Assembly: GCA_963528105.1 (NCBI GenBank)
Contig: CAURUY010000004.1
Location: 6,331-70,330 of the forward strand
Direction of reading: 5' to 3'
From: an uncultured Streptococcus sp.
Lineage (GTDB): Bacteria > Bacillota > Bacilli > Lactobacillales > Streptococcaceae
DNA length: 64,000 nucleotides
Shown here: positions 42,447 through 55,789 of the stretch, in pieces
How the letters are laid out: each line of letters opens with the position of its first letter
How positions within the stretch are numbered: position 1 is the first letter of the stretch
Notes under the pieces: generated by a model
Databases searched by the model: none
Told to the model about the DNA's origin: nothing
What the model saw: only the letters and a program-made list of their open reading frames with translations
Program-made: the position numbers and the translations under genes

Positions 42447-42582
42447 GTAAACTCCTCTTGTGTAGTATGATTCTACTATACCATATTTTAGGGAGAAAGA
42501 CTATATGGGATACTTCGTGTGACTTTGCCTCAAGTATGGTAAAATGGGAATAAGAAAATGACAGCTTAGAATGAGGAAAATC

Positions 42583-45228
42583 ATGTTAGGATTGAAGTTT
42601 AATGGCACTTGGCGCAACTACCAAAAACAGGTCTTGGATAACTTCCAAGAATACCAAGCAGATGGTCATGTTCACTTGGTGGCAGCGCCAGGTTCAGGGA
42701 AAACAACCATAGGAATCGAGTTGATTGCTCGCTTTGATAAGCCTGCTCTCGTTTTGGTACCGACGGTGACCATTCGGGAACAATGGGTGGATAGGATTCG
42801 CCAGGCCTTTTTAGAGGATGAGGACCAGGTCACAAGTCTCGTGTCTCAAAATCTCAAGGACATGAAGCAAATCACCATCGCCACCTACCAAGCTTTTCAC
42901 AGTGCTATGCAACAGGTACAATCTCAAGAAGATAACGGCGAGGTTGAGGATTTTGTAGGCTTTGACCTGCTTGCCAGACTCAAGGAAAGGGGTGTCGAAA
43001 CCCTCTGTCTGGACGAATGCCATCACTTGAGAAATGAATGGTGGAAAAGTCTAGAAGATTTCCGTAAAAACTATCCGCAACTGCAAGTCATCTCTCTCAC
43101 TGCGACACCGCCTTATGACAGTGAGCCAGAACTCTGGGATCGCTATCTCCAGATGTGTGGCGAGATTGACCAAGAAATCACGGTGCCAGAACTGGTCAAG
43201 GAAGACACTCTTTGCCCTCATCAGGACTTTGTCTATATCTGTTTTCCGACTAAGGAAGAGGACAAACGCTTGGAAGAGTTTGAAGACACTAAGTGGCAGT
43301 ATGTCAGCCAACTAGTCGATGATCCTGACTTCCAAGAGTTGATTCGGAGTTCCAAGGTTCTGAAAGGGGAAATTTCTGCGGATATGCTCCTCGAAGACCC
43401 CAAGTATCTCTCAGCACTCCTCATTTATCTACAGGCTCAAAAGCTAGAAATCCCCAAGTATCTACGAGATTTACTAGGTGCTGAAGGCTTGCCTTCCCTT
43501 AATTACTATTGGCTAGAAGTTCTCTTGCAAGGCCTTCTCTATCAGACTCCTGATTGGTATGAGGATCCGCAGGAGACAAAGAAAAAGATAGAAGCAGAAC
43601 TGAAATCAAGAGGACTAATTGAAAAACGTCAGGTTTTCTTGGTCAAATCCAAGGCCAATGACCAAATCCTCAACCAATCTCTAGGAAAACTGGCTTGCAT
43701 CGCATCTATTTTTGAAACCGAGTATGCTAGTCTAGGAAAGGACTTGAGACAGTTAGTCTTGGCGGATTATATCCGTAAGGACTTTGCTAACTATCTAGGG
43801 GATGATCAGGCACCAATCACGCAATTAGGTGTCCTCCCTTATTTTGAAACCATTCGCAGAAGTGCACAAAAACAAGGCTTGTCTGTCCCTATAGCAGTCC
43901 TTTCAGGTAGTGTCGTAATCATACCGGCTAGTGTCAAGGCAGAACTTCAAGCACTCATTCCAAACACTAGCTTAAGCTTCTCTGCCATCGGAAAACTCGA
44001 TCAAGGTGCTTATCTCCAAGTAGGCTTTCCATCCAGCTTTAAGGGGATGGTCGCAGCAGTGACCGAGCTCTTCCAACGTGGTTCTATACAGGTCTTGGTC
44101 GGTACCAAGTCTCTCTTGGGAGAAGGATGGGATGCGCCTTGTGTCAACTCTCTCATCCTCGGAAGTTTTGTCGGAAGCTTTATGCTCAGCAATCAAATGC
44201 GGGGCCGTGCCATCCGTATCTGGTCAGGACATCCAGATAAGACCAGCAATATCTGGCACCTAGTAGCCATCAAACCGTACAAAAATCCAGCCTTTTCTAA
44301 GGAGGATCAAGAGGAACTAGACCTCAATCCTTATCAAGACCTCCAAACCCTTGCCCGTCGTATGGAGCATTTCCTTGGCTTGTCCTATAAGGAAGATACC
44401 ATTGAAACAGGTCTGGATCGCTTGAACTTTCCTGAGTTCCCATTTAAGAAAAAGAAACTCGAAGACTATAACGAGAAGATCATGGAACTATCCAAGGATC
44501 GTGCCTCCCTTCGTAAAAAATGGCAGGAATCTCTCATTGTTGCTGATAAGATTGAGATTGTCAATGAAGTGGCGACCGACAGCAAACGAATCCCTCTGCT
44601 TGCCCTAGCGGATGCTGAAAAGTGGCTTCGCTATGCTCTGATAGTATTTGCCATTAGTCTCCTAACTTATGTCGTTCGACTAACCATTTTTGCCTTGCCA
44701 TGGTTGACAGCTCTTTGTGTCCTCTTCCTAGCTATCACAGCCTTTCGCTACTACAGCTACAAGAGTCCTTATAAACGCTTGCGCCAGATCGGTGAAGCTA
44801 TTCGCAAAGCCATGGTGACTGCCGGGCATTTGTCTGATGACCAGTCGCGCGTGCAGGTCGATGAGGACAAGGACAGCTTTAATGTCTTTGCCTATCTAAA
44901 AGGTGGCAGCATGCGAGACAAGGAACTTTTTTCCAAGGTCTTAGGAGAATTCTTTGCCCCAGTGGACAATCAACGTTACCTCTTAGTCGCTCAAAAAGCA
45001 CCAGCAGGTCAGTCCAAGTATTTCGTAGTGCCTAGCCTCTTTGAAAAACGCAAGGAAGATGCCCAGCTCTTCCAAAATGCCGTCGCACCACACATTGGCA
45101 ACTACCAACTCGTCTACACCCGCAACGAAGCAGGCCGAAGAATTCTGCTCGAAGCCAGACTCAAATCTCTAGCCAACAAAAACGACCGCATCATCACCAA
45201 AAAGAAGGTTAAAAGTGCTTTGAAATAA
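42583..45228 (+). CDS. SF2 (DExH) helicase-like protein with two C-terminal-half TM helices
   Basis: AAPGSGKT, LDECHH, TAT, LGEGWDAP, QMRGRAIR; hydrophobic pair at about 44623-44754. Confidence 0.85.
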   Translation: MLGLKFNGTWRNYQKQVLDNFQEYQADGHVHLVAAPGSGKTTIGIELIARFDKPALVLVPTVTIREQWVDRIRQAFLEDEDQVTSLVSQNLKDMKQITIATYQAFHSAMQQVQSQEDNGEVEDFVGFDLLARLKERGVETLCLDECHHLRNEWWKSLEDFRKNYPQLQVISLTATPPYDSEPELWDRYLQMCGEIDQEITVPELVKEDTLCPHQDFVYICFPTKEEDKRLEEFEDTKWQYVSQLVDDPDFQELIRSSKVLKGEISADMLLEDPKYLSALLIYLQAQKLEIPKYLRDLLGAEGLPSLNYYWLEVLLQGLLYQTPDWYEDPQETKKKIEAELKSRGLIEKRQVFLVKSKANDQILNQSLGKLACIASIFETEYASLGKDLRQLVLADYIRKDFANYLGDDQAPITQLGVLPYFETIRRSAQKQGLSVPIAVLSGSVVIIPASVKAELQALIPNTSLSFSAIGKLDQGAYLQVGFPSSFKGMVAAVTELFQRGSIQVLVGTKSLLGEGWDAPCVNSLILGSFVGSFMLSNQMRGRAIRIWSGHPDKTSNIWHLVAIKPYKNPAFSKEDQEELDLNPYQDLQTLARRMEHFLGLSYKEDTIETGLDRLNFPEFPFKKKKLEDYNEKIMELSKDRASLRKKWQESLIVADKIEIVNEVATDSKRIPLLALADAEKWLRYALIVFAISLLTYVVRLTIFALPWLTALCVLFLAITAFRYYSYKSPYKRLRQIGEAIRKAMVTAGHLSDDQSRVQVDEDKDSFNVFAYLKGGSMRDKELFSKVLGEFFAPVDNQRYLLVAQKAPAGQSKYFVVPSLFEKRKEDAQLFQNAVAPHIGNYQLVYTRNEAGRRILLEARLKSLANKNDRIITKKKVKSALK

Positions 45229-45257
45229 AAGGAAGTGAGCGTTTTCTGCTAGGAATA

Positions 45258-45296
45258 TGATATAATAATAGCAAGAATATTGTCCCTGAAGGAGAA
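45258..45296 (+). promoter_or_regulatory. Extended -10 promoter and RBS for hsdR
   Basis: TGaTATAAT at 45258-45266; AAGGAGA before ATG 45303. Confidence 0.55.
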
Positions 45297-45302
45297 ATAT
45301 AG

Positions 45303-48293
45303 ATGCAGGTAAAACCAGAACTGGAAATAGAAAAACAACTGATAAACCAGCTGGTAACTGGTGAAAGCCAATGGACTTATAGAGAAGACCTAAAAACAGA
45401 AGAACAACTATGGGACAATTTTTTTGAGAAAATAGCCCAAAACAACGTTGCTCTGCTAGCAGACCATCCCTTGACTGAGCAGGAAAAACGCCAGATTCAG
45501 AATCAACTCAACTTTGTCAGCTACTATGATGCTGCCAAGTGGTTGGTCGGAGAAAATGGCATTGCCAAAGTCGAGGTTCAAAGAGAAGATGCGAGCCTAG
45601 GCACCATCCGTTTGTCAGTCATTTGGCGTGACAATATCGCAGCAGGAAAGTCTAGCTACGAAGTTGTCAATCAAGTCCAGAGAGAAAAAGTAAATCCTCT
45701 GGACCAAGACCGTAGATTGGATGTTACTCTCCTCATCAACGGCTTGCCTATGATTCAAATCGAGCTTAAGAGTTCCCAAGCAGCATTTATCGATGCCTTT
45801 CATCAGATTAAAAAATATGACCGTGAAGGGAAATTCCGTGGTATCTACTCTAGCTTGCAGATGTTTGTCGTAACCAACAAGGTCGATACTCGCTATATCG
45901 CTGCAGCTCGTGAAAATAAACTCAACAAGCAATTTCTAACCAAATGGGTGGATAAGGACAATCATCCTGTGACAAACTTGACCAGTTTTGCCCACGAAGT
46001 CCTTTCTATCCCTCGTGCTCATCAGATGGTCATGCAGTATTCTGTCATTGACGATAGTAAGAAATCACTCATCCTCTTACGTCCCTATCAGATCCATGCC
46101 ATCGAAGCGGTGCAGGAAGCATCTCGCCAGCAAGCATCAGGCTATGTTTGGCATACGACAGGTTCAGGGAAGACCTTGACTTCTTATAAGGTGGCTCGTA
46201 ATCTCCTTCAGATTCCATCTATCCAAAAGACGATTTTTGTCGTTGACCGCAGGGACTTGGACCAACAGACCACATCATCCTTCCTCTCTTATGCGACCAA
46301 TGATGTCATCGATATCGACGAGACGGATAATACACATGATTTGGTCAAGCGCTTAGGAAGTAATGATAAGCGGGTTGTGGTGACCACTATCCAGAAAATC
46401 ACCACCATGATGCGCAAGTTTGACCAAGGTCTTTACCAACGAGATGCGGACAAAATCAAGGGACTCCGAGTGGCCTTTGTTGTAGATGAATGCCACCGTG
46501 CCGTGACGCCACAAACACAAAAAGACATTAAAACTTTTTTCCCTCAGTCACTATGGTATGGTTTTACAGGCACCCCCATCTTTAAGGAAAATAAACGCCA
46601 GCAAGTCGGCGACCTAGCCCAAACCACCCAGCAACAGTATGGAGACCGTCTCCATGAGTATACAGTCAAGGAAGCCATCCATGACGGAGCTGTCCTAGGA
46701 TTTAAGGTAGACTATCGCAATACCCTCATCACGGATAAATCTGAAAATGACATACCAGATACCGTCTACGAGGATGAGGAGCACATGCTGGAAGTCTTGG
46801 ATGCCATTATCAATAAATCCCGCCAACAACTAGGTTTCCAAAAAGGAGTGGGCAATACCTACAATGCCATCCTAACGGTCAAGTCCATCCCTCAAGCCCA
46901 AGCCTACTATGACCTTCTCAAAAAAGTCAAGGATGGTCAGAAAAGAGTCAAGGTATCCGAGAGAGTCAAGATGGTCCTCCCGGACTTTCCAAAGGCGACC
47001 ATCACCTACTCGGTTACAGAAAATGAAGAAGACTCAAGAGCCAACCAAGACCACATGAAGCAGGTCTTAGAGGACTATAACCAAGAGTTTGATACTCACT
47101 TTACTATGGCGGATCTGCGTGGCTTCAATACCGATGTCAATAACCGCTTAGCCCGAAAACAGGATAAATATCTCTATCGCAATGAGCAGTTGGACTTAGT
47201 CATCGTGGTCAATCGTCTCTTAACAGGATTTGATGCACCTTGTCTATCGACCCTCTTTATCGACAGAAAGCCCATGCAACCGCAGGATTTGATTCAGGCC
47301 TTTAGTCGAACCAACCGTATCTTTGATTCTAGTAAGACCTATGGTCATATCATCACCTTCCAAAAGCCACTAGCCTTTAAGGAAGCAGTTGATAATGCCC
47401 TCAAGCTTTACTCAAATGGTGGTGAAAATGATGTCCTAGCACCTAGCTGGGAAGAGGAAAAGAGAAACTTTTTGAAAAGTTGTAGCGACTTTCAAAATCT
47501 CATCACAGATGATCCCGTCGAAGGACTCCAACTCGAGCAAATCTCTACGCCTCAGTTGAGAAAAATCGCCAAGGCCTATCAAGGATTTGATAAGTATCTA
47601 GCTTCTATCCGAGTATACAAGGAGTATGATGAGGACGAAATTTACGCCCAAACGGGACTCAGTGCAGAAGAGTTGGAAGCTTATCTTGGTTTTTATCAGA
47701 ATATCTTAGCAGAGTTGAAAAGCCGAATCGAAGATGATAACGACGATGATGGACCTTTTGATATCCACTATGAATTAGAGTCTATCCAAGTAGATGAGAT
47801 CAACTACGCCTATATCCTGACCTTGATCCAAAGCCTGCTCGATCAAGAGCAGAGTCCGGAAAAGAGTCTCAGTGCACAGGACAGAGAAGCAGTGGATACC
47901 TATATCCAAAGTCTGGAGAAGACCAATCCAAACCTTGCACAGATCATCTCAGAACTTTGGCAAGAAGTACAGGCAAATCCTGACCGCTACAAAGGTCAAT
48001 CCATCGCCAATATCCTTGATCAGATGATTGAAGCAGTCATCCAGCAGCATATTCAAGACTTTAGTAAGACTTGGTATGTGGGTGAAGACGAACTCCGCTA
48101 CTATGTCAATCACTACCGCAAGGGCGCTAAAAAACAACTAGGAGAAAGTCAACTGACCAAGAGTCAACGCTACAAGGACTATAAAGTTGAGGTGGCAGAT
48201 GCCCTCAACCCACTCCTCTATAAAAAACAAATCAAAGAAGCCTATACCCAACTGATCGAAGAGGTGATTGAACCACTGAGAGTGGGGAGGTAG
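45303..48293 (+). CDS. hsdR: Type I restriction endonuclease subunit R
   Basis: D...QIELK nuclease motif, [33 protein letters not shown]; uninterrupted 996 aa. Confidence 0.95.
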
Positions 48294-48314
48294 GAGAAGG
48301 GAAGTAAAATACAT

Positions 48315-49166
48315 TTGATAAAAAAATCATTTAAATTATCGTGCAAGTATTTTTTTAGTTTTTTATCCTTGTTATCATTATTGGCGACTTTCATAAATAT
48401 CAGTGATATTTATGAAAGTAATAATCTAATAAACCATATAATTAAAGTTATAATAACTTTAATTATATTATATGCCTTAAGCTTCGTTTGTGCATTTTTA
48501 TATTACTATTTCAAAAGGAGAGTAATATATTTTAAATATAATAGGTTTGTAGTTTCAGGAACATATGGAAATATACTAGATTACATTGGCGCTAATAAAG
48601 TTAATTTAATAGTTCCTGTAAATAGTTGTTTTGATACCAAAATAGATGATTCAGTTATTTCTGCCAATTCACTTCATGGGCAAGTTATTAATTTTTTATA
48701 CGATAATAATTTAGTATCACAGTCGGATCTCTATAAGAAGATTAAGCGTAGTTTGAAAGAACAGAATATATCATCAGTAAATATTAGTAATGATGTAAAA
48801 GAAGGTGGAAAATCAGTAGGAAATTATAAAAGGTACCCTATCGGAAGTACTGCTTTTGTGGATATTGGTAACGTTAGATATCATTTTATAGCATTATCTA
48901 TTATAGAAAATAATAAGAATGCTAAAACTAGTGATCAAGACTATCTTATAGTTTTGAATGCAATAGTTGATAATTGTTTTAGGAATTCTAATGGTAATCC
49001 AATATATCTACCCTTGATTGGTTCTGGTTTGTCAAAACTAAATTATAATCATCAGCAACAATTAGAATTTATGGTTAAATACTTCATGCTTCGTAAAACA
49101 AAATTAACATCTGATGTCGAAATCGTAATCCGAAAGGAAGATGGAGATACAATTTCTATATTATAA
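48315..49166 (+). CDS. 2TM plus macrodomain protein, type II Thoeris ThsA-like (ThsA_Macro/DUF6430)
   Basis: TM helices at about aa 12-29 and 42-66; IVPVNSCFDTKIDDSVISANSLHGQ, YPIGS and PLIGSGLS segments match the recalled ThsA macrodomain pattern; about 25% GC in a sampled line; TTG start. Confidence 0.75.
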   Translation: MIKKSFKLSCKYFFSFLSLLSLLATFINISDIYESNNLINHIIKVIITLIILYALSFVCAFLYYYFKRRVIYFKYNRFVVSGTYGNILDYIGANKVNLIVPVNSCFDTKIDDSVISANSLHGQVINFLYDNNLVSQSDLYKKIKRSLKEQNISSVNISNDVKEGGKSVGNYKRYPIGSTAFVDIGNVRYHFIALSIIENNKNAKTSDQDYLIVLNAIVDNCFRNSNGNPIYLPLIGSGLSKLNYNHQQQLEFMVKYFMLRKTKLTSDVEIVIRKEDGDTISIL

Positions 49167-49178
49167 TTTAGGTGAGAG

Positions 49179-51869
49179 ATGAGTACGAATAAGGTAAAAG
49201 ATCCGATTATAGTTTTTATTAGTTCTAAATGCGATGGGAAGTATAGAGAGATGCGTAAAAGACTCTCTAAACTCATTAATGATTCGCCTTTAATGAATTC
49301 AATTTGTTATGAAGAAGAGGGAAGTCGCAGTGTTAAATCGGAGGAATTTTATGTAAATCATGTAAAGTCTTGTGATGTATGCTTGATTATCATTGATAAT
49401 GAAGATGGAATCAGTCCTTCGGTTTTGAAGGAAATTGACACTGCAAAGAAGCATAATAAAAAATGTTTATATTTCTTTTGTACTGAAAATTCTAGTGAAA
49501 AGACTCAATTACAGGAAGATCTTTATGCCAAAGAAAAATTTTCAGAAATACCCGTGTTTGATCAGATCCCTGAAAAAGTAATTGAATCAATTGTTGGAGA
49601 TATTATTTTTTATTATCGTAATAAAAATAGTGATACTGTTGATTACAAAATTTCTGACATCAATACAGATAAGTATTCTTCAACAATTCTTGATATTTCA
49701 AAAGAATCAAAAGTGTTATGTGAATATCTTTTCAAAGTGTTTCAGTTGAACTTATCACATGATGAAAATAAAATATCAAACATTGAGCAGGAGATAATAA
49801 AGTTTTTCCAATTTGTTTTTAATAAACATAAATTCTTAGAAATTAATTTTGATATTCTAGAGGAGTATTTTGTTTCAAAAACTGAAGAGGAATTAAAAGA
49901 AATCCTAACTCAAAGATTCAATGCTTTAAAACTATATTTTAGGGGTGATCTAAATGGTGCAATATCCATTCTATCTGATAGTTTAGTGAAAGCAACTGAC
50001 GATGTAAATATTCCAAAATGGATAGTTAACAATATAGCAATAGATTTAAGAAATGTTCAAAATGAGAAAGGGAATTATGAAAATAGATGGCCAATTTTAA
50101 ATACTGGTCAGGAATATATAAATAAATCAAAAGAGCCTCTTTACTTTCCATTGTTAGATAGAAGAGAAAAAATGTTTTTTGAGCAAATAGACAAATTTCA
50201 AGCAGATAATTTATATTCAGAATCTGTAAAGAGTTATAATCTATGTAATATTGGACTATTTCAATGGATATCGGAATCATTTGTATTATCATTAGGTTAT
50301 GCCTCTATTACTCATATACAACATGCAAAAAATTTGATGAAAGTGCTATTAAGAACACTTGTCGAAATGTATGATGGTTATGAATTTAAAAAAGAATTAT
50401 TTGTCTTAGCAGTAACTTCTTCGGACAAAGAACTAGCGAATTTCTTGCTTAAATCTAAACAGATAATAGGAACCATTAGTTCAGAAGAGATTGAGTATAC
50501 TATAGGATTGATTCGTAATATTGATTTTTTTAATAATCGTTTGCGTTCTCAATGTTACTTGTTACACCATTTTTCAGATTATATAAATGATTCTATAATT
50601 GTTTCGTTTCTTATGGAATTTAAAGGAGAGGTCATAAAATGGCTGAATCAAGATAATCGCGAGTTGAATTTGGAAAAGCCAATTTTTGATGCTTTAAAAA
50701 AAGTAATAACACGTTTTAATTATGAAGATACTATTGTAATCTTAAACATAATTTTTGAAAAAAAACTAATTCGGTTTTATGATAGCGCATTTTCTCTATT
50801 ATGTAGAATGGACTATCGTTGGCTAACAAACCAAACTCAGAAAAAAGTTGGAAATTATTTTATATTTAAAAATAATGAATATCAATTAGATGCATATGGA
50901 AGTTATAGTAATGCTTTGATAAATTATATAAGAAATTCTTCTATTGATAATACCAATTTATTAAGGTATATTGAAGAGAATAATTCTGTATTAATGGAGA
51001 AAATCAATCTTGAATTGGAACACAATACTGTTCCTGAAAAATATATTGATAAATATATTGAGGATATAATCAGTTATAATAGAACTCAAGGAGAAAATGG
51101 GATATTTACGTTTTCGGCAGTAAATAATTTCCAAACAATATTTAATATTATTAAGATAGATAATGTAAAATTATCTGAAGAGATTTTTAATAGACTTATT
51201 GATGTTTGTAAGCAGACTATTATTTCAGATAATCAAATATTAAGTGATAAATATTCTTCATTTAACCTTTTATTTCAAATCTATTTTTCTCAGACTCATG
51301 ACTATAATTGGGAAAAACTAGCAGATGTATTTCAATCAAGTAAAAATACATTACTAGTACATAGTGATTTAATTGACGAAAATCCAATTATTTTATCTAT
51401 TCAACTGAATGTAATGAAAAGTATTTTTGATGGTAATTATAATCTTGTTATTAACGATATACTCAAACTATCTGATGAAAATATATTTGAAATTAAGAGA
51501 GTAATATCATTTTTGCAAACAATCTTCGAGTTTGATAAATTTTCTCCAAATGGTGAATTTATTATGTTTTGTACTTATTTTTGTTTAAACATGACCAAAC
51601 ATTATTCTAGAAATATTAAGATGAATGCAACAGATTTGTTGATTAAACTAACTAAATATGAAATAGTTAATCAGATTATATTAAATCAACTATCGAATAT
51701 GATGGATAATTCTAACTCTGACATAAAGCTAGTTATTGTAAAAAATATAGATAAAATTATTTCAAATGATGATTACAAAGAATATATTATAGAGAAGGCA
51801 AGATTAGATAATCACTATTTAGTAATTAAGTATGCAAATGAATATAGAATGGAAAATTCTAATGAATAA
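49179..51869 (+). CDS. DUF4062/TIR-like domain fused to a long alpha-helical (TPR/HEAT-like) region; putative defence sensor-enzyme
   Basis: VFISS...R...CDVCLIII...SVLKEIDTAKKHNKKCLYF head (putative catalytic E85); remaining approximately 750 aa look helical with no Walker A; very AT-rich. Confidence 0.7.
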   Translation: MSTNKVKDPIIVFISSKCDGKYREMRKRLSKLINDSPLMNSICYEEEGSRSVKSEEFYVNHVKSCDVCLIIIDNEDGISPSVLKEIDTAKKHNKKCLYFFCTENSSEKTQLQEDLYAKEKFSEIPVFDQIPEKVIESIVGDIIFYYRNKNSDTVDYKISDINTDKYSSTILDISKESKVLCEYLFKVFQLNLSHDENKISNIEQEIIKFFQFVFNKHKFLEINFDILEEYFVSKTEEELKEILTQRFNALKLYFRGDLNGAISILSDSLVKATDDVNIPKWIVNNIAIDLRNVQNEKGNYENRWPILNTGQEYINKSKEPLYFPLLDRREKMFFEQIDKFQADNLYSESVKSYNLCNIGLFQWISESFVLSLGYASITHIQHAKNLMKVLLRTLVEMYDGYEFKKELFVLAVTSSDKELANFLLKSKQIIGTISSEEIEYTIGLIRNIDFFNNRLRSQCYLLHHFSDYINDSIIVSFLMEFKGEVIKWLNQDNRELNLEKPIFDALKKVITRFNYEDTIVILNIIFEKKLIRFYDSAFSLLCRMDYRWLTNQTQKKVGNYFIFKNNEYQLDAYGSYSNALINYIRNSSIDNTNLLRYIEENNSVLMEKINLELEHNTVPEKYIDKYIEDIISYNRTQGENGIFTFSAVNNFQTIFNIIKIDNVKLSEEIFNRLIDVCKQTIISDNQILSDKYSSFNLLFQIYFSQTHDYNWEKLADVFQSSKNTLLVHSDLIDENPIILSIQLNVMKSIFDGNYNLVINDILKLSDENIFEIKRVISFLQTIFEFDKFSPNGEFIMFCTYFCLNMTKHYSRNIKMNATDLLIKLTKYEIVNQIILNQLSNMMDNSNSDIKLVIVKNIDKIISNDDYKEYIIEKARLDNHYLVIKYANEYRMENSNE

Positions 51870-53070
51870 TTTTAAAATTCCAAAAATTAGGTTTATGAAT
51901 TTTAATGACAAGTGGAAATATAAAATACTTGGTGAAATATCAAATTCTATTGAATATGGTTTAAATGCTTCTGCAAAGGATTTTGATGGTATTCATAAAT
52001 ATCTTAGAATCACAGATATAGATGATTCTTCTAGATTGTTTTTAACTGATAAACTTAGTTCTCCAGATGTCAATTTTACTGAAGAGGACTATGAAAATTA
52101 TAAATTGCAGATTAATGATCTCCTATTCGCACGTACTGGTGCAAGTGTTGGGAAAACCTATCTTTACAGAGAATCAGATGGTGAAGTTTATTATGCTGGA
52201 TTCTTAATCAGAGCAAGATTACATGATTCATATGATGGGAATTTTATTTTTCAACAGACGCTTACTGATAAGTATAAGCAGTTTATTGAAATCACCTCAC
52301 AACGTTCAGGTCAACCAGGGGTTAATGGGAAAGAATATGGAGATTGGAAGATTGGCATGACATCCTATCCCGAACAATCCGCCATCGGCTCCCTCTTCCG
52401 CACCCTCGACGACCTTCTTGCTAGCTACAAGGAGAATCTTGCTAACTACCAATCTCTCAAGGCGACCATGCTTTCCAAGATGTTTCCCAAAGCTGGACAG
52501 GCAGTTCCTGAGATTCGTTTGGATGGATTTGAAGGTGAGTGGAAAGAAAAGGAATTCAGTAAACTTGTAAAAAGAGTTACTCAAAGTTCTGACTCTGATT
52601 CATTGCCAAAGGTAGAGTTTGAGGATATTATTTCTGGTCAGGGAAAGCTTAATAAAGATATTAGTACTAAATTTGATAATCGTAAAGGTATACACTTTAA
52701 ACCTGGATACACATTATATGGGAAATTACGTCCATATTTAAATAATTGGCTTTTGCCGAAATTTGAGGGAGTAGCTTTAGGAGATTTTTGGGTATTTGAT
52801 CCAAATGGAAATGATTCAAATTTCATTTATTATTTAGTTCAATCAAATCGCTATCAAAAAGTTGCTAATGACACATCTGGTACTAAAATGCCTCGTTCAG
52901 ATTGGAAGTCAGTTTCAACAACTATTTTTGCAATTCCACAAACAATTGCAGAACAACAAGTCATCGGATCCTATTTCTCAAACCTTGATAATCTCATTAA
53001 CTCTCACCAAGAAAAAATTTCTCAGCTAGAAACACTGAAGAAGAAACTTTTGCAGGATATGTTTATATAA
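51862..53070 (+). CDS. hsdS: Type I R-M specificity subunit with two TRDs
   Basis: PKIRF..F...W, central EQSAIGSLFRTLDDLL...KMFP...VPEIRLDGFEGEW, C-terminal EQQVIG...LKKKLLQDMF; ATG 51862 overlaps the upstream stop. Confidence 0.93.
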   Translation: MNNFKIPKIRFMNFNDKWKYKILGEISNSIEYGLNASAKDFDGIHKYLRITDIDDSSRLFLTDKLSSPDVNFTEEDYENYKLQINDLLFARTGASVGKTYLYRESDGEVYYAGFLIRARLHDSYDGNFIFQQTLTDKYKQFIEITSQRSGQPGVNGKEYGDWKIGMTSYPEQSAIGSLFRTLDDLLASYKENLANYQSLKATMLSKMFPKAGQAVPEIRLDGFEGEWKEKEFSKLVKRVTQSSDSDSLPKVEFEDIISGQGKLNKDISTKFDNRKGIHFKPGYTLYGKLRPYLNNWLLPKFEGVALGDFWVFDPNGNDSNFIYYLVQSNRYQKVANDTSGTKMPRSDWKSVSTTIFAIPQTIAEQQVIGSYFSNLDNLINSHQEKISQLETLKKKLLQDMFI

Positions 53071-53085
53071 AAGGAGTGCAGTAAA

Positions 53086-54000
53086 ATGTCAAAAGTAAAA
53101 TCAGAAACTCTAAAGAAAGAAGAAAAACCTGTAGTAGCTATCTGCTATGATTTTGATAAAACGCTGTCTCCTGATGATATGCAAGCCCAAGGATTTATAC
53201 AGAAGCTTGGGTATGAAATCAGTGAATTTTGGAAGAAATCCAATGGTTTTGCCAAGGCTAATAATATGGACAAAAATCTTGCCTATATGTTTACGATGAA
53301 AACAGAATCTGAAGGGACAGTCCTATTTACAAAGACAGAGTTAGCTAAGTTTGGTTCAGAGGTAGAACTATTCCCAGGAGTCGAAGACTGGTTTGAGCGT
53401 ATTCGAAAATATGGTGAAGAAAACGGAGTTATTGTAGAGCATTACATCATTTCATCTGGTTTGAAAGAAATGATAGAGGGGACTTCAATAGCTAAAAATG
53501 GTGCTTTTAAGAAAATTTATGCAACTTCTTTTTATTGTGATGAAAAGGGTGTCGCGGTCTGGCCTGCTCAAGTTGTTAACTACACCAATAAGACTCAATT
53601 TCTTTTTAGAATTACTAAAGGTATTTTAGATGTCAATGACGATGCGGTGAACGATTTTGTTGCTGAAAGTGATTTACGAGTTCCTTTTAGAAATATGGTT
53701 TATTTAGGGGATAGTGATACAGATATTCCGTGTATGAAGCTAGTCAAAACAAGAGGTGGCTACTCTATCGGTGTATTCAATCCAAAAACCAATGATAGAA
53801 AGAAAGTTCACAAAATGACTCAGGATAATCGTATTGATTATTTTGTTCCAGCTGACTACTCAGAAAATACAGAACTTGATAAACTAATCAAGACGATTAT
53901 TAAAAAGACGGCTTATAATGAATTGTTAGAAAACAAGAAAAATGCTGATAAACTTGAAGCAAGCAAAAGAAAGCGAAAAAGAAATCCAAAACTAAGGTAA
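53086..54000 (+). CDS. HAD-superfamily hydrolase/phosphatase of unknown substrate
   Basis: Motif I YDFDKTL, motif II ISSG, motif III K (NKTQ), motif IV YLGDSDTD. Confidence 0.85.
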   Translation: MSKVKSETLKKEEKPVVAICYDFDKTLSPDDMQAQGFIQKLGYEISEFWKKSNGFAKANNMDKNLAYMFTMKTESEGTVLFTKTELAKFGSEVELFPGVEDWFERIRKYGEENGVIVEHYIISSGLKEMIEGTSIAKNGAFKKIYATSFYCDEKGVAVWPAQVVNYTNKTQFLFRITKGILDVNDDAVNDFVAESDLRVPFRNMVYLGDSDTDIPCMKLVKTRGGYSIGVFNPKTNDRKKVHKMTQDNRIDYFVPADYSENTELDKLIKTIIKKTAYNELLENKKNADKLEASKRKRKRNPKLR

Positions 54001-54187
54001 TTGTTTCAAAAGGCTCTGATTTCCTTTCTATCGAAAATCTGGATTTTATAACCCTCGAAAAAATATCGTTTATCAACTTCCTATTTCTGATATTCCTTTG
54101 GACTTGATTCAAACGGTAGAAAGAGAAGTGATTGGTTATAAATGATTGCCTGTTTAAAAATAATTGCAAAAATTAGAAAGAAACATT

Positions 54188-55789
54188 ATGGAAACAACAC
54201 AAACTTCCCAGTCGCTCTACCAAGCCCTGTGGAACTCAGCGGATGTTCTCCGCTCTAAGATGGATGCAAATGACTACAAGTCCTATCTTTTGGGCATGGT
54301 CTTTTATAAGTATCTGTCAGATAAGATGCTCTTTTTCGTGGCTGAGACCATGGAAGAGGGGACGGATAGTCTGGAGGCTGCCCTTGAGGTCTATCGCAAC
54401 TACTACGAGGATGCGGAGACCCATGAGGACCTGGTCTCTGTCATGAATGATGAGCTCAACTATATTATCAAGCCCGACTTGACTTTTACGGCTCTGGTAG
54501 AGCGTGTCAATGAAGGGACTTTCCAGCTGGAAGATCTGGCTCAAGGTTTTCGTGATATCGAGCAAAGTGACGACCTCTATGAAAATCTCTTTGAAGATAT
54601 CGACCTCTATTCTTAAAAGCTAGGGGCAACTCCACAAAAGCAAAACCAAACGGTAGCAGCAGTCATGAAAGAGTTGGCTGTGCTAGATGTGGCTGGTCAT
54701 GCTGGCGATATGTTGGGGGATGCCTATGAGTATCTGATCGGTCAGTTTGCGACCGACTCGGGTAAGAAAGCAGGTGAGTTCTATACGCCTCAACCTGTTG
54801 CCAAGCTCATGACTCAGATTGCCTTTTTGGGTCGTGAAGATCAGGAAGGCTTTACCATCTATGATGCGACTATGGGGTCAGGCTCTCTCTTGCTCAATGC
54901 CAAGAAATACTCTCATAAACCGCAGACGGTTGTCTACTTTGGTCAGGAGCTCAATACCTCAACCTATAACCTAGCTCGGATGAATATGATCCTACACGGT
55001 GTTCCAGTAGAGAATCAATTTCTACACAATGCCGATACACTGGATGAAGACTGGCCGACTCAAGAGCCGACTAACTTTGATGGGGTTCTCATGAACCCTC
55101 CATACTCTGCCAAGTGGTCTGCAAGCTCTGGATTCCTGAACGACCCTCGTTTCTCTCCTTTTGGGAAACTGGCGCCCCAGTCCAAGGCTGACTTTGCCTT
55201 TCTCTTGCATGGGTATTACCACCTCAAGCAGGATAATGGGGTCATGGCTATCGTCCTTCCCCACGGTGTTCTCTTCCGTGGAAATGCGGAAGGGACCATT
55301 CGCAAGGCCTTGTTAGAAGAAGGTGCCATTGATACGGTTATCGGTCTACCAGCCAATATCTTCTTTAACACCAGCATTCCGACTACGGTTATCATTCTCA
55401 AAAAGAACCGTACTAATCGTGATGTCTACTTTATCGATGCTTCTAAGGAGTTTGATAAGGGGAAAAACCAGAATATCATGACGGATGCCCATATCGAAAA
55501 GATTCTGGAAGCCTACAAGTCTCGTGAGGAGATTGATAAGTTTGCCCACCTAGCAAGCTATGAAGAAATCGTCGAAAATGACTATAACCTTAATATCCCT
55601 CGCTACGTGGATACCTTTGAGGAAGAAGAAGTAGAGCCACTGACAGACATCGTCAGCAAGATTAACGAGACAAATCAAGCAATCCAAAGCCAAACAACTT
55701 CTTTACTTGAAATGCTCGGTCAGCTCCACGGAACCACACCAGAAGCCGATGCCGAACTCAAAGAGTTTTTGAAGGAATTTAAAGGGTGA
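54188..55789 (+). pseudogene. hsdM: Type I R-M methyltransferase subunit M interrupted by an in-frame TAA at 54614-54616
   Basis: LWNSADVLRSKMDA N-domain; reading continues in frame after the stop (KLGATPQKQNQ...) into GEFYTP, DATMGSGSLL and NPPY; about 533 aa if read through. Confidence 0.88.

Follow-up and report, generated by a model that had tools for sequence, protein, structure and literature searches.

Locus and gene layout

The window analysed here is a 64,000-nucleotide (nt) stretch of DNA from an uncultured Streptococcus sp. (GenBank assembly GCA_963528105.1, contig CAURUY010000004.1, positions 6,331 to 70,330 of the forward strand), and the assembly to which it belongs, 1.16 Mb in size, represents a genome that is 65% complete. 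Two open reading frames (ORFs) on its + strand, ORF1 at 48315-49166 and ORF2 at 49179-51869, lie between hsdR and hsdS of a type I restriction-modification (R-M) operon and are examined as a candidate antiphage signalling system related to type II Thoeris. ORF1 is an open frame of 283 aa with a TTG start and encodes a ThsA of the transmembrane-Macro (TM-Macro) kind. ORF2 is an open frame of 896 aa with an ATG start and encodes a fusion of a DUF4062 domain, also called NIR, to an alpha-solenoid. The gap between the two is exactly 12 nt (49167-49178, + strand) and holds the Shine-Dalgarno-like AGGTGAGAG; at the other end the start of hsdS overlaps the 3' end of ORF2 by 38 nt. Counted in 500-nt windows, GC content is 0.22-0.31 over 48500-51999 versus 0.42-0.47 over 45000-47999. 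An initial annotation, made from the letters of the DNA alone, had described two ORFs 12 nt apart between hsdR and hsdS and had called the cassette AT-rich relative to hsdR, and coordinates and composition agree with it on both counts. Among records, the closest is Streptococcus infantis strain SO, whose ORF2 is 99% identical.

ORF1, a TM-Macro effector

In canonical type II Thoeris a TM-Macro ThsA is paired with a TIR protein, ThsB, and the signal is histidine-ADP-ribose (His-ADPR). On sequence grounds ORF1 is a bona fide TM-Macro effector of this system. Two predicted transmembrane (TM) helices span approximately aa 11-66 (48345-48512, + strand), where 19-residue Kyte-Doolittle windows with their centres at residues 21-23 and 46-58 exceed 1.6, and are followed by a ThsA_Macro ligand-binding domain at aa 84-273 (48564-49133, + strand; Pfam PF20016, E 5.5e-37). 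The PADLOC ThsA1 model PDLC00408 matches aa 3-282 at E 1e-45, and the solved ThsA macro chains 8v6q, 9uuz and 8r66 are matched at E of about 1e-8 by ORF1 alone and at 1.5e-41 with a profile. The two N-terminal TM helices and the macro domain of the initial annotation are thus recovered by hydrophobicity, Pfam, PADLOC and PDB profile alike.

The TM-Macro ThsA of type II Thoeris, since renamed ThsC (10.64898/2025.12.03.692087), is described as binding ADP-ribose (ADPR) as well as imidazole adenine dinucleotide (IAD) and then self-aggregating (PMC11204291). Two-TM ThsA_Macro proteins are established effectors in these accounts and oligomerise upon ligand binding (10.1101/2024.01.03.573942; PMC11204291). 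Against four Streptococcus orthologues the ratio of nonsynonymous to synonymous change (dN/dS) of ORF1 is 0.28-0.44, and that of ORF2 is 0.21-0.35; on these ratios (dN/dS 0.21-0.44) both genes are under purifying selection.

ORF2, a NIR domain on an alpha-solenoid

The N-terminus of ORF2 is a TIR/NDT-like alpha/beta domain at aa 10-150 (49206-49628, + strand), NDT being nucleoside 2'-deoxyribosyltransferase. Pfam DUF4062 (PF13271) matches aa 12-75 with 26.1 bits, or 27.4 bits when aa 1-160 are searched, against a cut-off of 24.7, and is the sole family match in the Pfam search. Marginal as it is, the match is taken as real because 39 of 42 N-termini of ORF2-family members match the same family. 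As modelled by AlphaFold2 (AF2), aa 1-160 form a five-strand alpha/beta fold, with a predicted local distance difference test score (pLDDT) of 87. The model matches nucleoside 2'-deoxyribosyltransferase and DNPH1, with Foldseek E values from 2e-5 to 1e-3 and VIA Z of 12-13.5, as well as TIR domains at Z 9-12, among them RPS4 (12.0), SARM1 (11.2), ThsB 6lhy (10.1) and SpbK (10.0). F13, S15, S16 and E85 are invariant across 106 aligned ORF2 relatives, and E85 (codon GAA, 49431-49433, + strand) is invariant in a set of 42 aligned relatives also. The F13-E85 spacing resembles F11/E87 of Eva01, and by its position E85 is the predicted catalytic glutamate and the putative equivalent of Eva01 E87. 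The TIR-like or DUF4062 N-terminus suggested initially is therefore upheld by the PF13271 match, the modelled fold, the TIR Z scores and the invariant E85.

Neither a TIR family of Pfam nor a ThsB model of PADLOC matches ORF2, and searches gave no match in PADLOC-DB v2 at E <= 0.1, no PDB sequence match at E <= 10 and no meaningful NCBIfam match. That PADLOC catalogue would consequently call ThsA alone at this locus, the outcome that had been foreseen, with ORF1 matched and ORF2 unmatched.

The remainder of ORF2 (aa 174-894, 49698-51860, + strand) is modelled as an all-alpha solenoid of about 720 aa and is presumed to be the phage-sensing region. In the full-length AF2 model (mean pLDDT 89.4) a disordered linker at aa 150-167 gives way solely to helices up to residue 894. 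By fold, ORF2 comes closest to HEAT/ARM solenoids (PP2A-A, importins, CAND1) and to DSR2, each match being weak at E >= 1.3e-3; Foldseek returned no row at E <= 0.001 for the full-length model, and Pfam no HEAT match. Polar residues D289, P324, D327, S376 and R512 of the solenoid are invariant over the 106 sequences. Polar motifs in aa 281-379 (approximately 50019-50315), comprising D289 and R291 in an IAIDLRN-like motif, P324, D327, R328, S376 and H379, are conserved as strongly as the NIR active site over the same sequences, a possible sign of another functional site or of an interface that is fixed.

Linkage of ThsA and ORF2-family genes

Pairing was followed from the ThsA side in a metagenome scan with cassette-type ThsA queries, which kept 80 loci of 124 relatives (loci from this and the other scans are numbered with the prefix L). 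The 80 include many near-copies, so that the counts overstate independent events. An ORF2-family sequence lies directly downstream in 31 of 31 loci in which ThsA is at least 55% identical; it is full-length and open in 21, contig-cut in two, truncated in one and broken in seven, and in five of the seven, with accession prefix BNJ, the ThsA frame is broken as well. ThsA is intact in 25 of these 31 and in L001-L006, its frame being split in L083-L087 and contig-cut in L076. The close pairs occupy a common hsdR-hsdS site wherever flanks exist. Alleles are shuffled while the pair is kept: L078 combines ThsA at 57% with ORF2 at 89%, and L069 ThsA at 87% with ORF2 at 75%. Judged by this linkage, ORF1 and ORF2 behave as a conserved unit.

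Forty-nine loci are more distant (ThsA 29-35% identity). None of them holds the ORF2 family and 44 have ThsB_TIR adjacent, and by gene order the slot filled by ORF2 is the slot normally held by ThsB_TIR in relatives of ORF1. The other five are L108, three loci at contig edges, and L116, which is left without explanation. In L108 (4935-7190) a 304-aa ThsA_Macro protein is followed after 73 nt by a 422-aa DUF4062 protein (E 1.7e-24) unrelated to ORF2; its C-terminal half of about 250 aa has no domain match, a divergent helix-turn-helix regulator lies upstream, and no TIR match occurs among ORFs of >= 80 aa in the 10.8-kb locus. In L116 (1443-5873) a 1147-aa protein without a Pfam match ends exactly at the start of ThsA_Macro (329 aa), and no ThsB was found there; the protein may be another non-TIR partner of ThsA. 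On viral contigs a TIR gene is adjacent in 20 of 21 ThsA loci. L140 (1534-5304), also a viral contig, carries DUF4062+NACHT (780 aa), ThsA_Macro and ThsB_TIR as overlapping genes, the first overlapping ThsA by 23 nt. DUF4062 is accordingly found next to ThsA_Macro in three architectures (solenoid, 422-aa and NACHT) and four lineages, twice without ThsB.

From the ORF2 side, genome contigs searched by pattern yielded 44 loci of the family, with neighbourhoods of up to 6 kb on each side and several loci cut by contig ends. All are Bacillota where lineage is shown, except one Spirochaetales-labelled metagenome-assembled genome. ThsA_Macro is adjacent in eight, six of Streptococcus with ThsA upstream (L001-L006) and two of Clostridia with ThsA downstream (L007, L008). 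In the latter two the ORF2-like gene, ThsA and ThsB_TIR are three overlapping genes in that order. The L006 pair (31%/33% identity) is flanked by rsfS/methyltransferase on one side and a HIGH nucleotidyltransferase on the other, and R-M genes are absent there. A quick IQ-TREE tree, which includes ten rows without known genomic context, separates a Streptococcus clade that includes L006 from the L007/L008 clade and places a ThsA-less clade as sister to the Streptococcus clade. Neighbours at ThsA-less loci are mixed defence and mobile genes, with no other recurrent partner.

The ORF2 family is present in three of 400 other sampled Streptococcus genomes, one of these being a deleted remnant. In that remnant (L051/L052, G295:C1:996825-997759) profile positions 7-117 are almost directly joined to 702-911, with one internal TGA, which indicates an internal deletion. 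When 72,556 plasmids and 50,697 phage records were searched with ORF2 by tblastn, neither set yielded a match.

Genomes carrying the pair were also searched for a ThsB. The Pfam families ThsB_TIR, TIR_2, TIR and CAP12-PCTIR_TIR gave no match in four of five Streptococcus carrier genomes, one of them complete, and the 65%-complete genome of the window itself has no ThsB_TIR or TIR_2 match. In S. sanguinis SK330R, the fifth genome, a canonical ThsA and ThsB lie apart from the cassette, about 300 kb away. This canonical type II Thoeris (L046, G002:C1:805979-809275, positions 647-1980) encodes a ThsA of 277 aa and a ThsB of 166 aa with a start/stop overlap. It lies directly upstream of a second hsdR, so that Thoeris stands beside type I R-M there too.

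The ligand pocket of ORF1

Pocket residues were mapped through the 8r66 alignment and a published list of His-ADPR contacts, which in B. amyloliquefaciens ThsA are given as D100, N133, Q135, S194, R240 and Y277 (10.1101/2024.01.03.573942). ORF1 has N86, H121, Q123, S195, K241 and R273 at these positions; two of the six contacts are thus kept (Q123, S195) and four changed (D100N, N133H, R240K, Y277R), and ThsB-linked ThsAs vary there too. The initial annotation had drawn attention to GNI in place of GDI in the macro domain as a possible sign of a different ligand. The residue itself is real: ORF1 reads G85-N86-I87 where all four solved ThsA macro sequences read G-D, and the residue equivalent to N86 in E. 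coli ThsA, D83, contacts the adenine N6 (PMC11204291). The significance attached to it for the ligand does not survive. Asn is found at the N86 position in 22 of the 49 distant ThsA loci that lack the ORF2 family, ThsB being linked in nearly all of the 22, and in four of 18 ThsB-linked ThsAs on viral contigs, while the L108 ThsA, whose only partner is a DUF4062 protein, keeps Asp at that position and Arg at the R240 position. As a partner-specific signature GNI is therefore ruled out, by Asn in ThsB-linked ThsAs and by Asp in L108.

By alignment, K241 is the sole near-specific change in the pocket and replaces the histidine-carboxylate Arg. Lys at the R240 position is near-confined to the Streptococcus cassette, with 26 of 26 loci with data versus two of the 49 distant ones; the L006 ThsA has Ser. 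Because this Arg is Lys here and Ser in L006, the ligand may differ from His-ADPR.

Relation to described systems

DUF4062 has been presented as a TIR-like NADase, an effector acting through NAD+ depletion (10.64898/2026.05.01.722283; 10.64898/2026.09.04.749371; 10.64898/2026.06.25.731849), its enzymes yielding ADPR and nicotinamide from NAD+ (10.64898/2026.05.01.722283; 10.64898/2026.09.04.749371). The systems reported are Swarozyc (10.64898/2026.05.01.722283), NIR/Avs/Vulcan/Vesta (10.64898/2026.09.04.749371) and Evangelion (10.64898/2026.06.25.731849). Vulcan is a single protein with a NIR domain at its N-terminus and HEAT repeats at its C-terminus (10.64898/2026.09.04.749371). From these accounts the NIR-helical fusion is already described, and only its pairing with ThsA appears new; the initial claim of an undescribed architecture is narrowed to that pairing. 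The main texts, figures and supplements apart, of 10.64898/2026.05.01.722283 and 10.64898/2026.06.25.731849 make no mention of ThsA, and those of 10.64898/2026.05.01.722283, 10.64898/2026.09.04.749371 and 10.64898/2026.06.25.731849 make none of a Macro effector. That some NIR domains might make signalling molecules is raised as a closing speculation, with no candidate given (10.64898/2026.09.04.749371). The 2025 Thoeris survey was seeded on six TIR Pfams, PF13271 not among them (10.64898/2025.12.03.692087), and would for that reason miss DUF4062-based systems.

Likeness to type II Thoeris lies in ORF1 as a full-length member of the effector family, in the tight two-gene operon and defence context, and in the TIR/NDT-like fold and conserved predicted catalytic Glu of ORF2. 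In contrast to type II Thoeris, ORF2 is DUF4062/NIR and of no Pfam TIR family, and with its solenoid its 896 aa are about five times the length of ThsB; no ThsB stands beside ORF1, in which four of six His-ADPR contact positions are changed. With Vulcan ORF2 shares the two-part layout and a Glu that is catalytic in Vulcan (E98) and predicted to be so in ORF2 (E85), and the majority of the ORF2 family, like Vulcan, are lone genes in defence islands. The sole lead to homology with the Vulcan founder WP_050009967.1 is an Atlas feature score of 0.81 between ORF2 and a Pseudomonadota DUF4062+HEAT_2 cluster. ORF2 differs from Vulcan in the missing Pfam HEAT match and merely weak HEAT/ARM folds (E >= 1.3e-3), in its occurrence in Bacillota rather than Pseudomonadota, and in its coupling to a Macro effector.

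In DSR2 a SIR2 NADase is joined to a HEAT-like sensor for phage tail tube protein. ORF2 would resemble it as a NADase head on a long helical-repeat sensor, and DSR2 chains rank with the top rows of the full-length Foldseek search. However, the match is weak (E >= 1.5e-3, TM-score about 0.15), and DSR2 is a single gene with the SIR2 NADase fold. Swarozyc and Evangelion have in common with ORF2 the antiphage context and a DUF4062 core with an N-terminal aromatic residue and Glu (F11/E87 in Eva01, F13/E85 in ORF2), but they are single-gene, their AUX regions differ from the ORF2 solenoid and are much shorter, and their published main texts name no effector partner. Eva01 is moreover described as enriched on plasmids, whereas ORF2 was unmatched in the 72,556 plasmids searched.

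Proposed mechanism and alternatives

ORF1 and ORF2 are read jointly, and with moderate confidence, as a low-GC cassette inserted into the type I R-M operon and as a Thoeris-II-like two-gene abortive-infection module in which a NIR-solenoid sensor replaces ThsB. The analysis itself supplies folds, conserved residues and gene linkage, and every functional step of this reading is an inference. The C-terminal solenoid of ORF2 would recognise a phage component, by analogy with Vulcan, DSR2 and Swarozyc. Recognition would activate the NIR domain, in which NAD+ would be cleaved at Glu85; of this, the analysis supplies the fold and the invariance of the Glu, and the chemistry is borrowed from characterised DUF4062 enzymes. 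The NAD+-derived product, either ADPR or a base-exchange product such as His-ADPR or an IAD-like conjugate, would bind the Macro domain of ORF1. Ligand-bound ORF1 would then oligomerise, and its two TM helices would cluster and bring about membrane damage or growth arrest, as proposed by analogy with the published TM-Macro ThsA. ORF2 would in this way take the role of the canonical small TIR protein ThsB, and NAD+ depletion by ORF2 may add a second defence layer.

Thoeris-related signalling, as put forward in the initial annotation, is partly supported, by the domain calls, by the behaviour of the pair as a conserved unit, by the ThsB slot (44 of 49 distant loci), by the lack of a canonical ThsB in four of five carrier genomes and by the separate DUF4062 lineages that adjoin ThsA_Macro in L108 and L140. 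Several observations weigh against it. ThsA is absent near the ORF2 family in 36 of 44 genome loci and in four of four viral-contig loci (within <= 6 kb on each side, some contig-cut), and the family evidently can work alone. Co-occurrence of the two genes holds from the ThsA side in 31 of 31 close loci, and from the ORF2 side in eight of 44 genome loci. A single insertion site, related oral streptococci and near-copies reduce the 31 close pairs to few independent events. The presence of a canonical ThsB in L007, L008 and L140 means that ThsA there needs no other partner, and since defence genes cluster, adjacency alone is weak evidence. No pocket residue pattern separates DUF4062-linked from ThsB-linked ThsAs. 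Finally, all characterised DUF4062 systems are, in the published accounts cited above, NAD+ depleters and not signal makers.

The ThsA-less loci (36 of 44) speak for a rival in which the two genes are independent neighbours, ORF2 being a self-sufficient Vulcan-like NADase and ORF1 an orphan ThsA that is inert or fed by an unrecognised signal. This is the likeliest of the rival explanations, although it is itself considered unlikely. Vulcan, Swarozyc and Evangelion are described as single-gene DUF4062 systems, the ORF2 family is often found beside hsdR, SLFN/AlbA_2 genes and recombinases, and the hsdR-hsdS slot takes other cargo, e.g. PDC-S34. Independent neighbours would not, however, be expected to stay paired in 31 of 31 loci despite allele shuffling, nor to recur in L006 at about 30% identity in an unrelated context. 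An orphan ThsA also sits poorly with purifying selection and a frame left whole in 25 of the close 31 as well as L001-L006, or with unrelated DUF4062 proteins in the ThsB slot (L108) or overlapping ThsA (L140).

A role for ORF1 as a buffer comes next in likelihood and is judged quite improbable. Here ORF2 would be the sole killer, through NAD+ depletion, and ORF1 would bind ADPR to buffer basal activity or tune the threshold. Macro domains do bind ADPR (PMC11204291), and partner genes kept in operons yet dispensable for defence have been reported, VstB of Vesta and MisB of Metis being the precedents (10.64898/2026.09.04.749371). Yet two-TM ThsA_Macro proteins are described as established ligand-oligomerised effectors, a membrane-anchored stoichiometric sponge would be an odd design, and a Macro of the ORF1 type is unlikely to be a hydrolase because the published ThsA Macro is without the MacroD catalytic Asp (10.1101/2024.01.03.573942). 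Direct protein contact, the ORF2 solenoid holding or releasing ORF1 with no diffusible signal, stands last and is very improbable. In its favour there are no more than the closely packed operon and alleles that co-vary, whereas the invariance of Glu85 and the NIR core implies that catalysis is conserved, and the occurrence of three unrelated DUF4062 architectures with ThsA is easier to reconcile with a common small-molecule product than with a common interface.

A wider proposal that builds on the Thoeris-like module is more tentative, its chances being put somewhat short of even. NIR (DUF4062) would constitute a second, TIR-independent family of immune-signal enzymes, ORF2 would make the Macro ligand, which is maybe not His-ADPR, and at least three DUF4062 architectures would have been repeatedly recruited as ThsB-type sensors, in place of ThsB or beside it. 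The current definition of Thoeris rests on signal generators with a TIR domain, and the cassette together with L108, L140, L007 and L008 provides concrete candidates in which a NIR enzyme stands with a ligand-gated effector and the ligands can be assayed; the pair offers a direct test of the signalling ability of NIR domains. If the Thoeris-like module is real, signalling immunity would be extended to a domain also found in human TEP1 and NWD/NPHP3 proteins, and the orphan ThsA calls of annotation tools in oral streptococci would be explained. If it is not, the locus would be an ordinary defence island with a Vulcan-like NADase beside an orphan effector.

Host operon and flanking genes

The host type I R-M operon has hsdR, hsdS and hsdM all present, hsdM with an in-frame TAA. 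hsdR (45303-48293, + strand), the restriction subunit, matches five type I R Pfam domains, among them HSDR_N, SWI2_SNF2, a T1R_D3-like domain and EcoR124_C, as well as PADLOC REase_I (E 1.6e-165). hsdS (51832-53070, + strand), the specificity subunit, matches Pfam Methylase_S and PADLOC Specificity_I (E 3.2e-82). No terminator-like site was found on the + strand over 46179-54918; with the 12-nt gap and its ribosome-binding site, and with the 38-nt hsdS overlap, this makes it probable that the cassette is carried on the hsd transcript. Promoter-like sites number 62 against 39 +/- 7.7 in shuffles, a scan that is uninformative because the DNA is AT-rich. Part of the stretch was present in 20 of 24 listed RNA runs, the share of sampled words being 0.19 at most in any of them. 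At 80% likeness, the contigs of four such runs covered only 51.1-52.4 kb, the 3' end of ORF2 and hsdS, in a diverged relative; ORF1 and the ORF1-ORF2 junction were without coverage in them, and they carry no information on expression or co-transcription either way.

hsdM (54164-55789, + strand) is read as HsdM_N and N6_Mtase in two same-frame ORFs. The TAA at 54614-54616, which yields HsdM_N of 150 aa and N6_Mtase of 374 aa, is AAA in L001, L002 and L004, and may be either a real nonsense mutation or an assembly error of the incomplete genome. Between hsdS and hsdM a HAD-like hydrolase gene matching the PADLOC candidate PDC-S34 (53086-54000, + strand; PDLC05001 E 1.7e-159, Pfam HAD E 1.8e-8) forms a second insert of the operon. 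This hsdS-hsdM slot is variable: it holds a 398-aa version, 67% identical, in L003 and L005 and is empty in L004. Upstream of hsdR lies an 885-aa ResIII/DEAD helicase-like gene (42571-45228, + strand; Pfam ResIII E 1.2e-23) with a weak PADLOC PbeA match (E 5.6e-14); it is kept directly 5' of hsdR in L001-L003, L061 and L062 and is regarded as context only.

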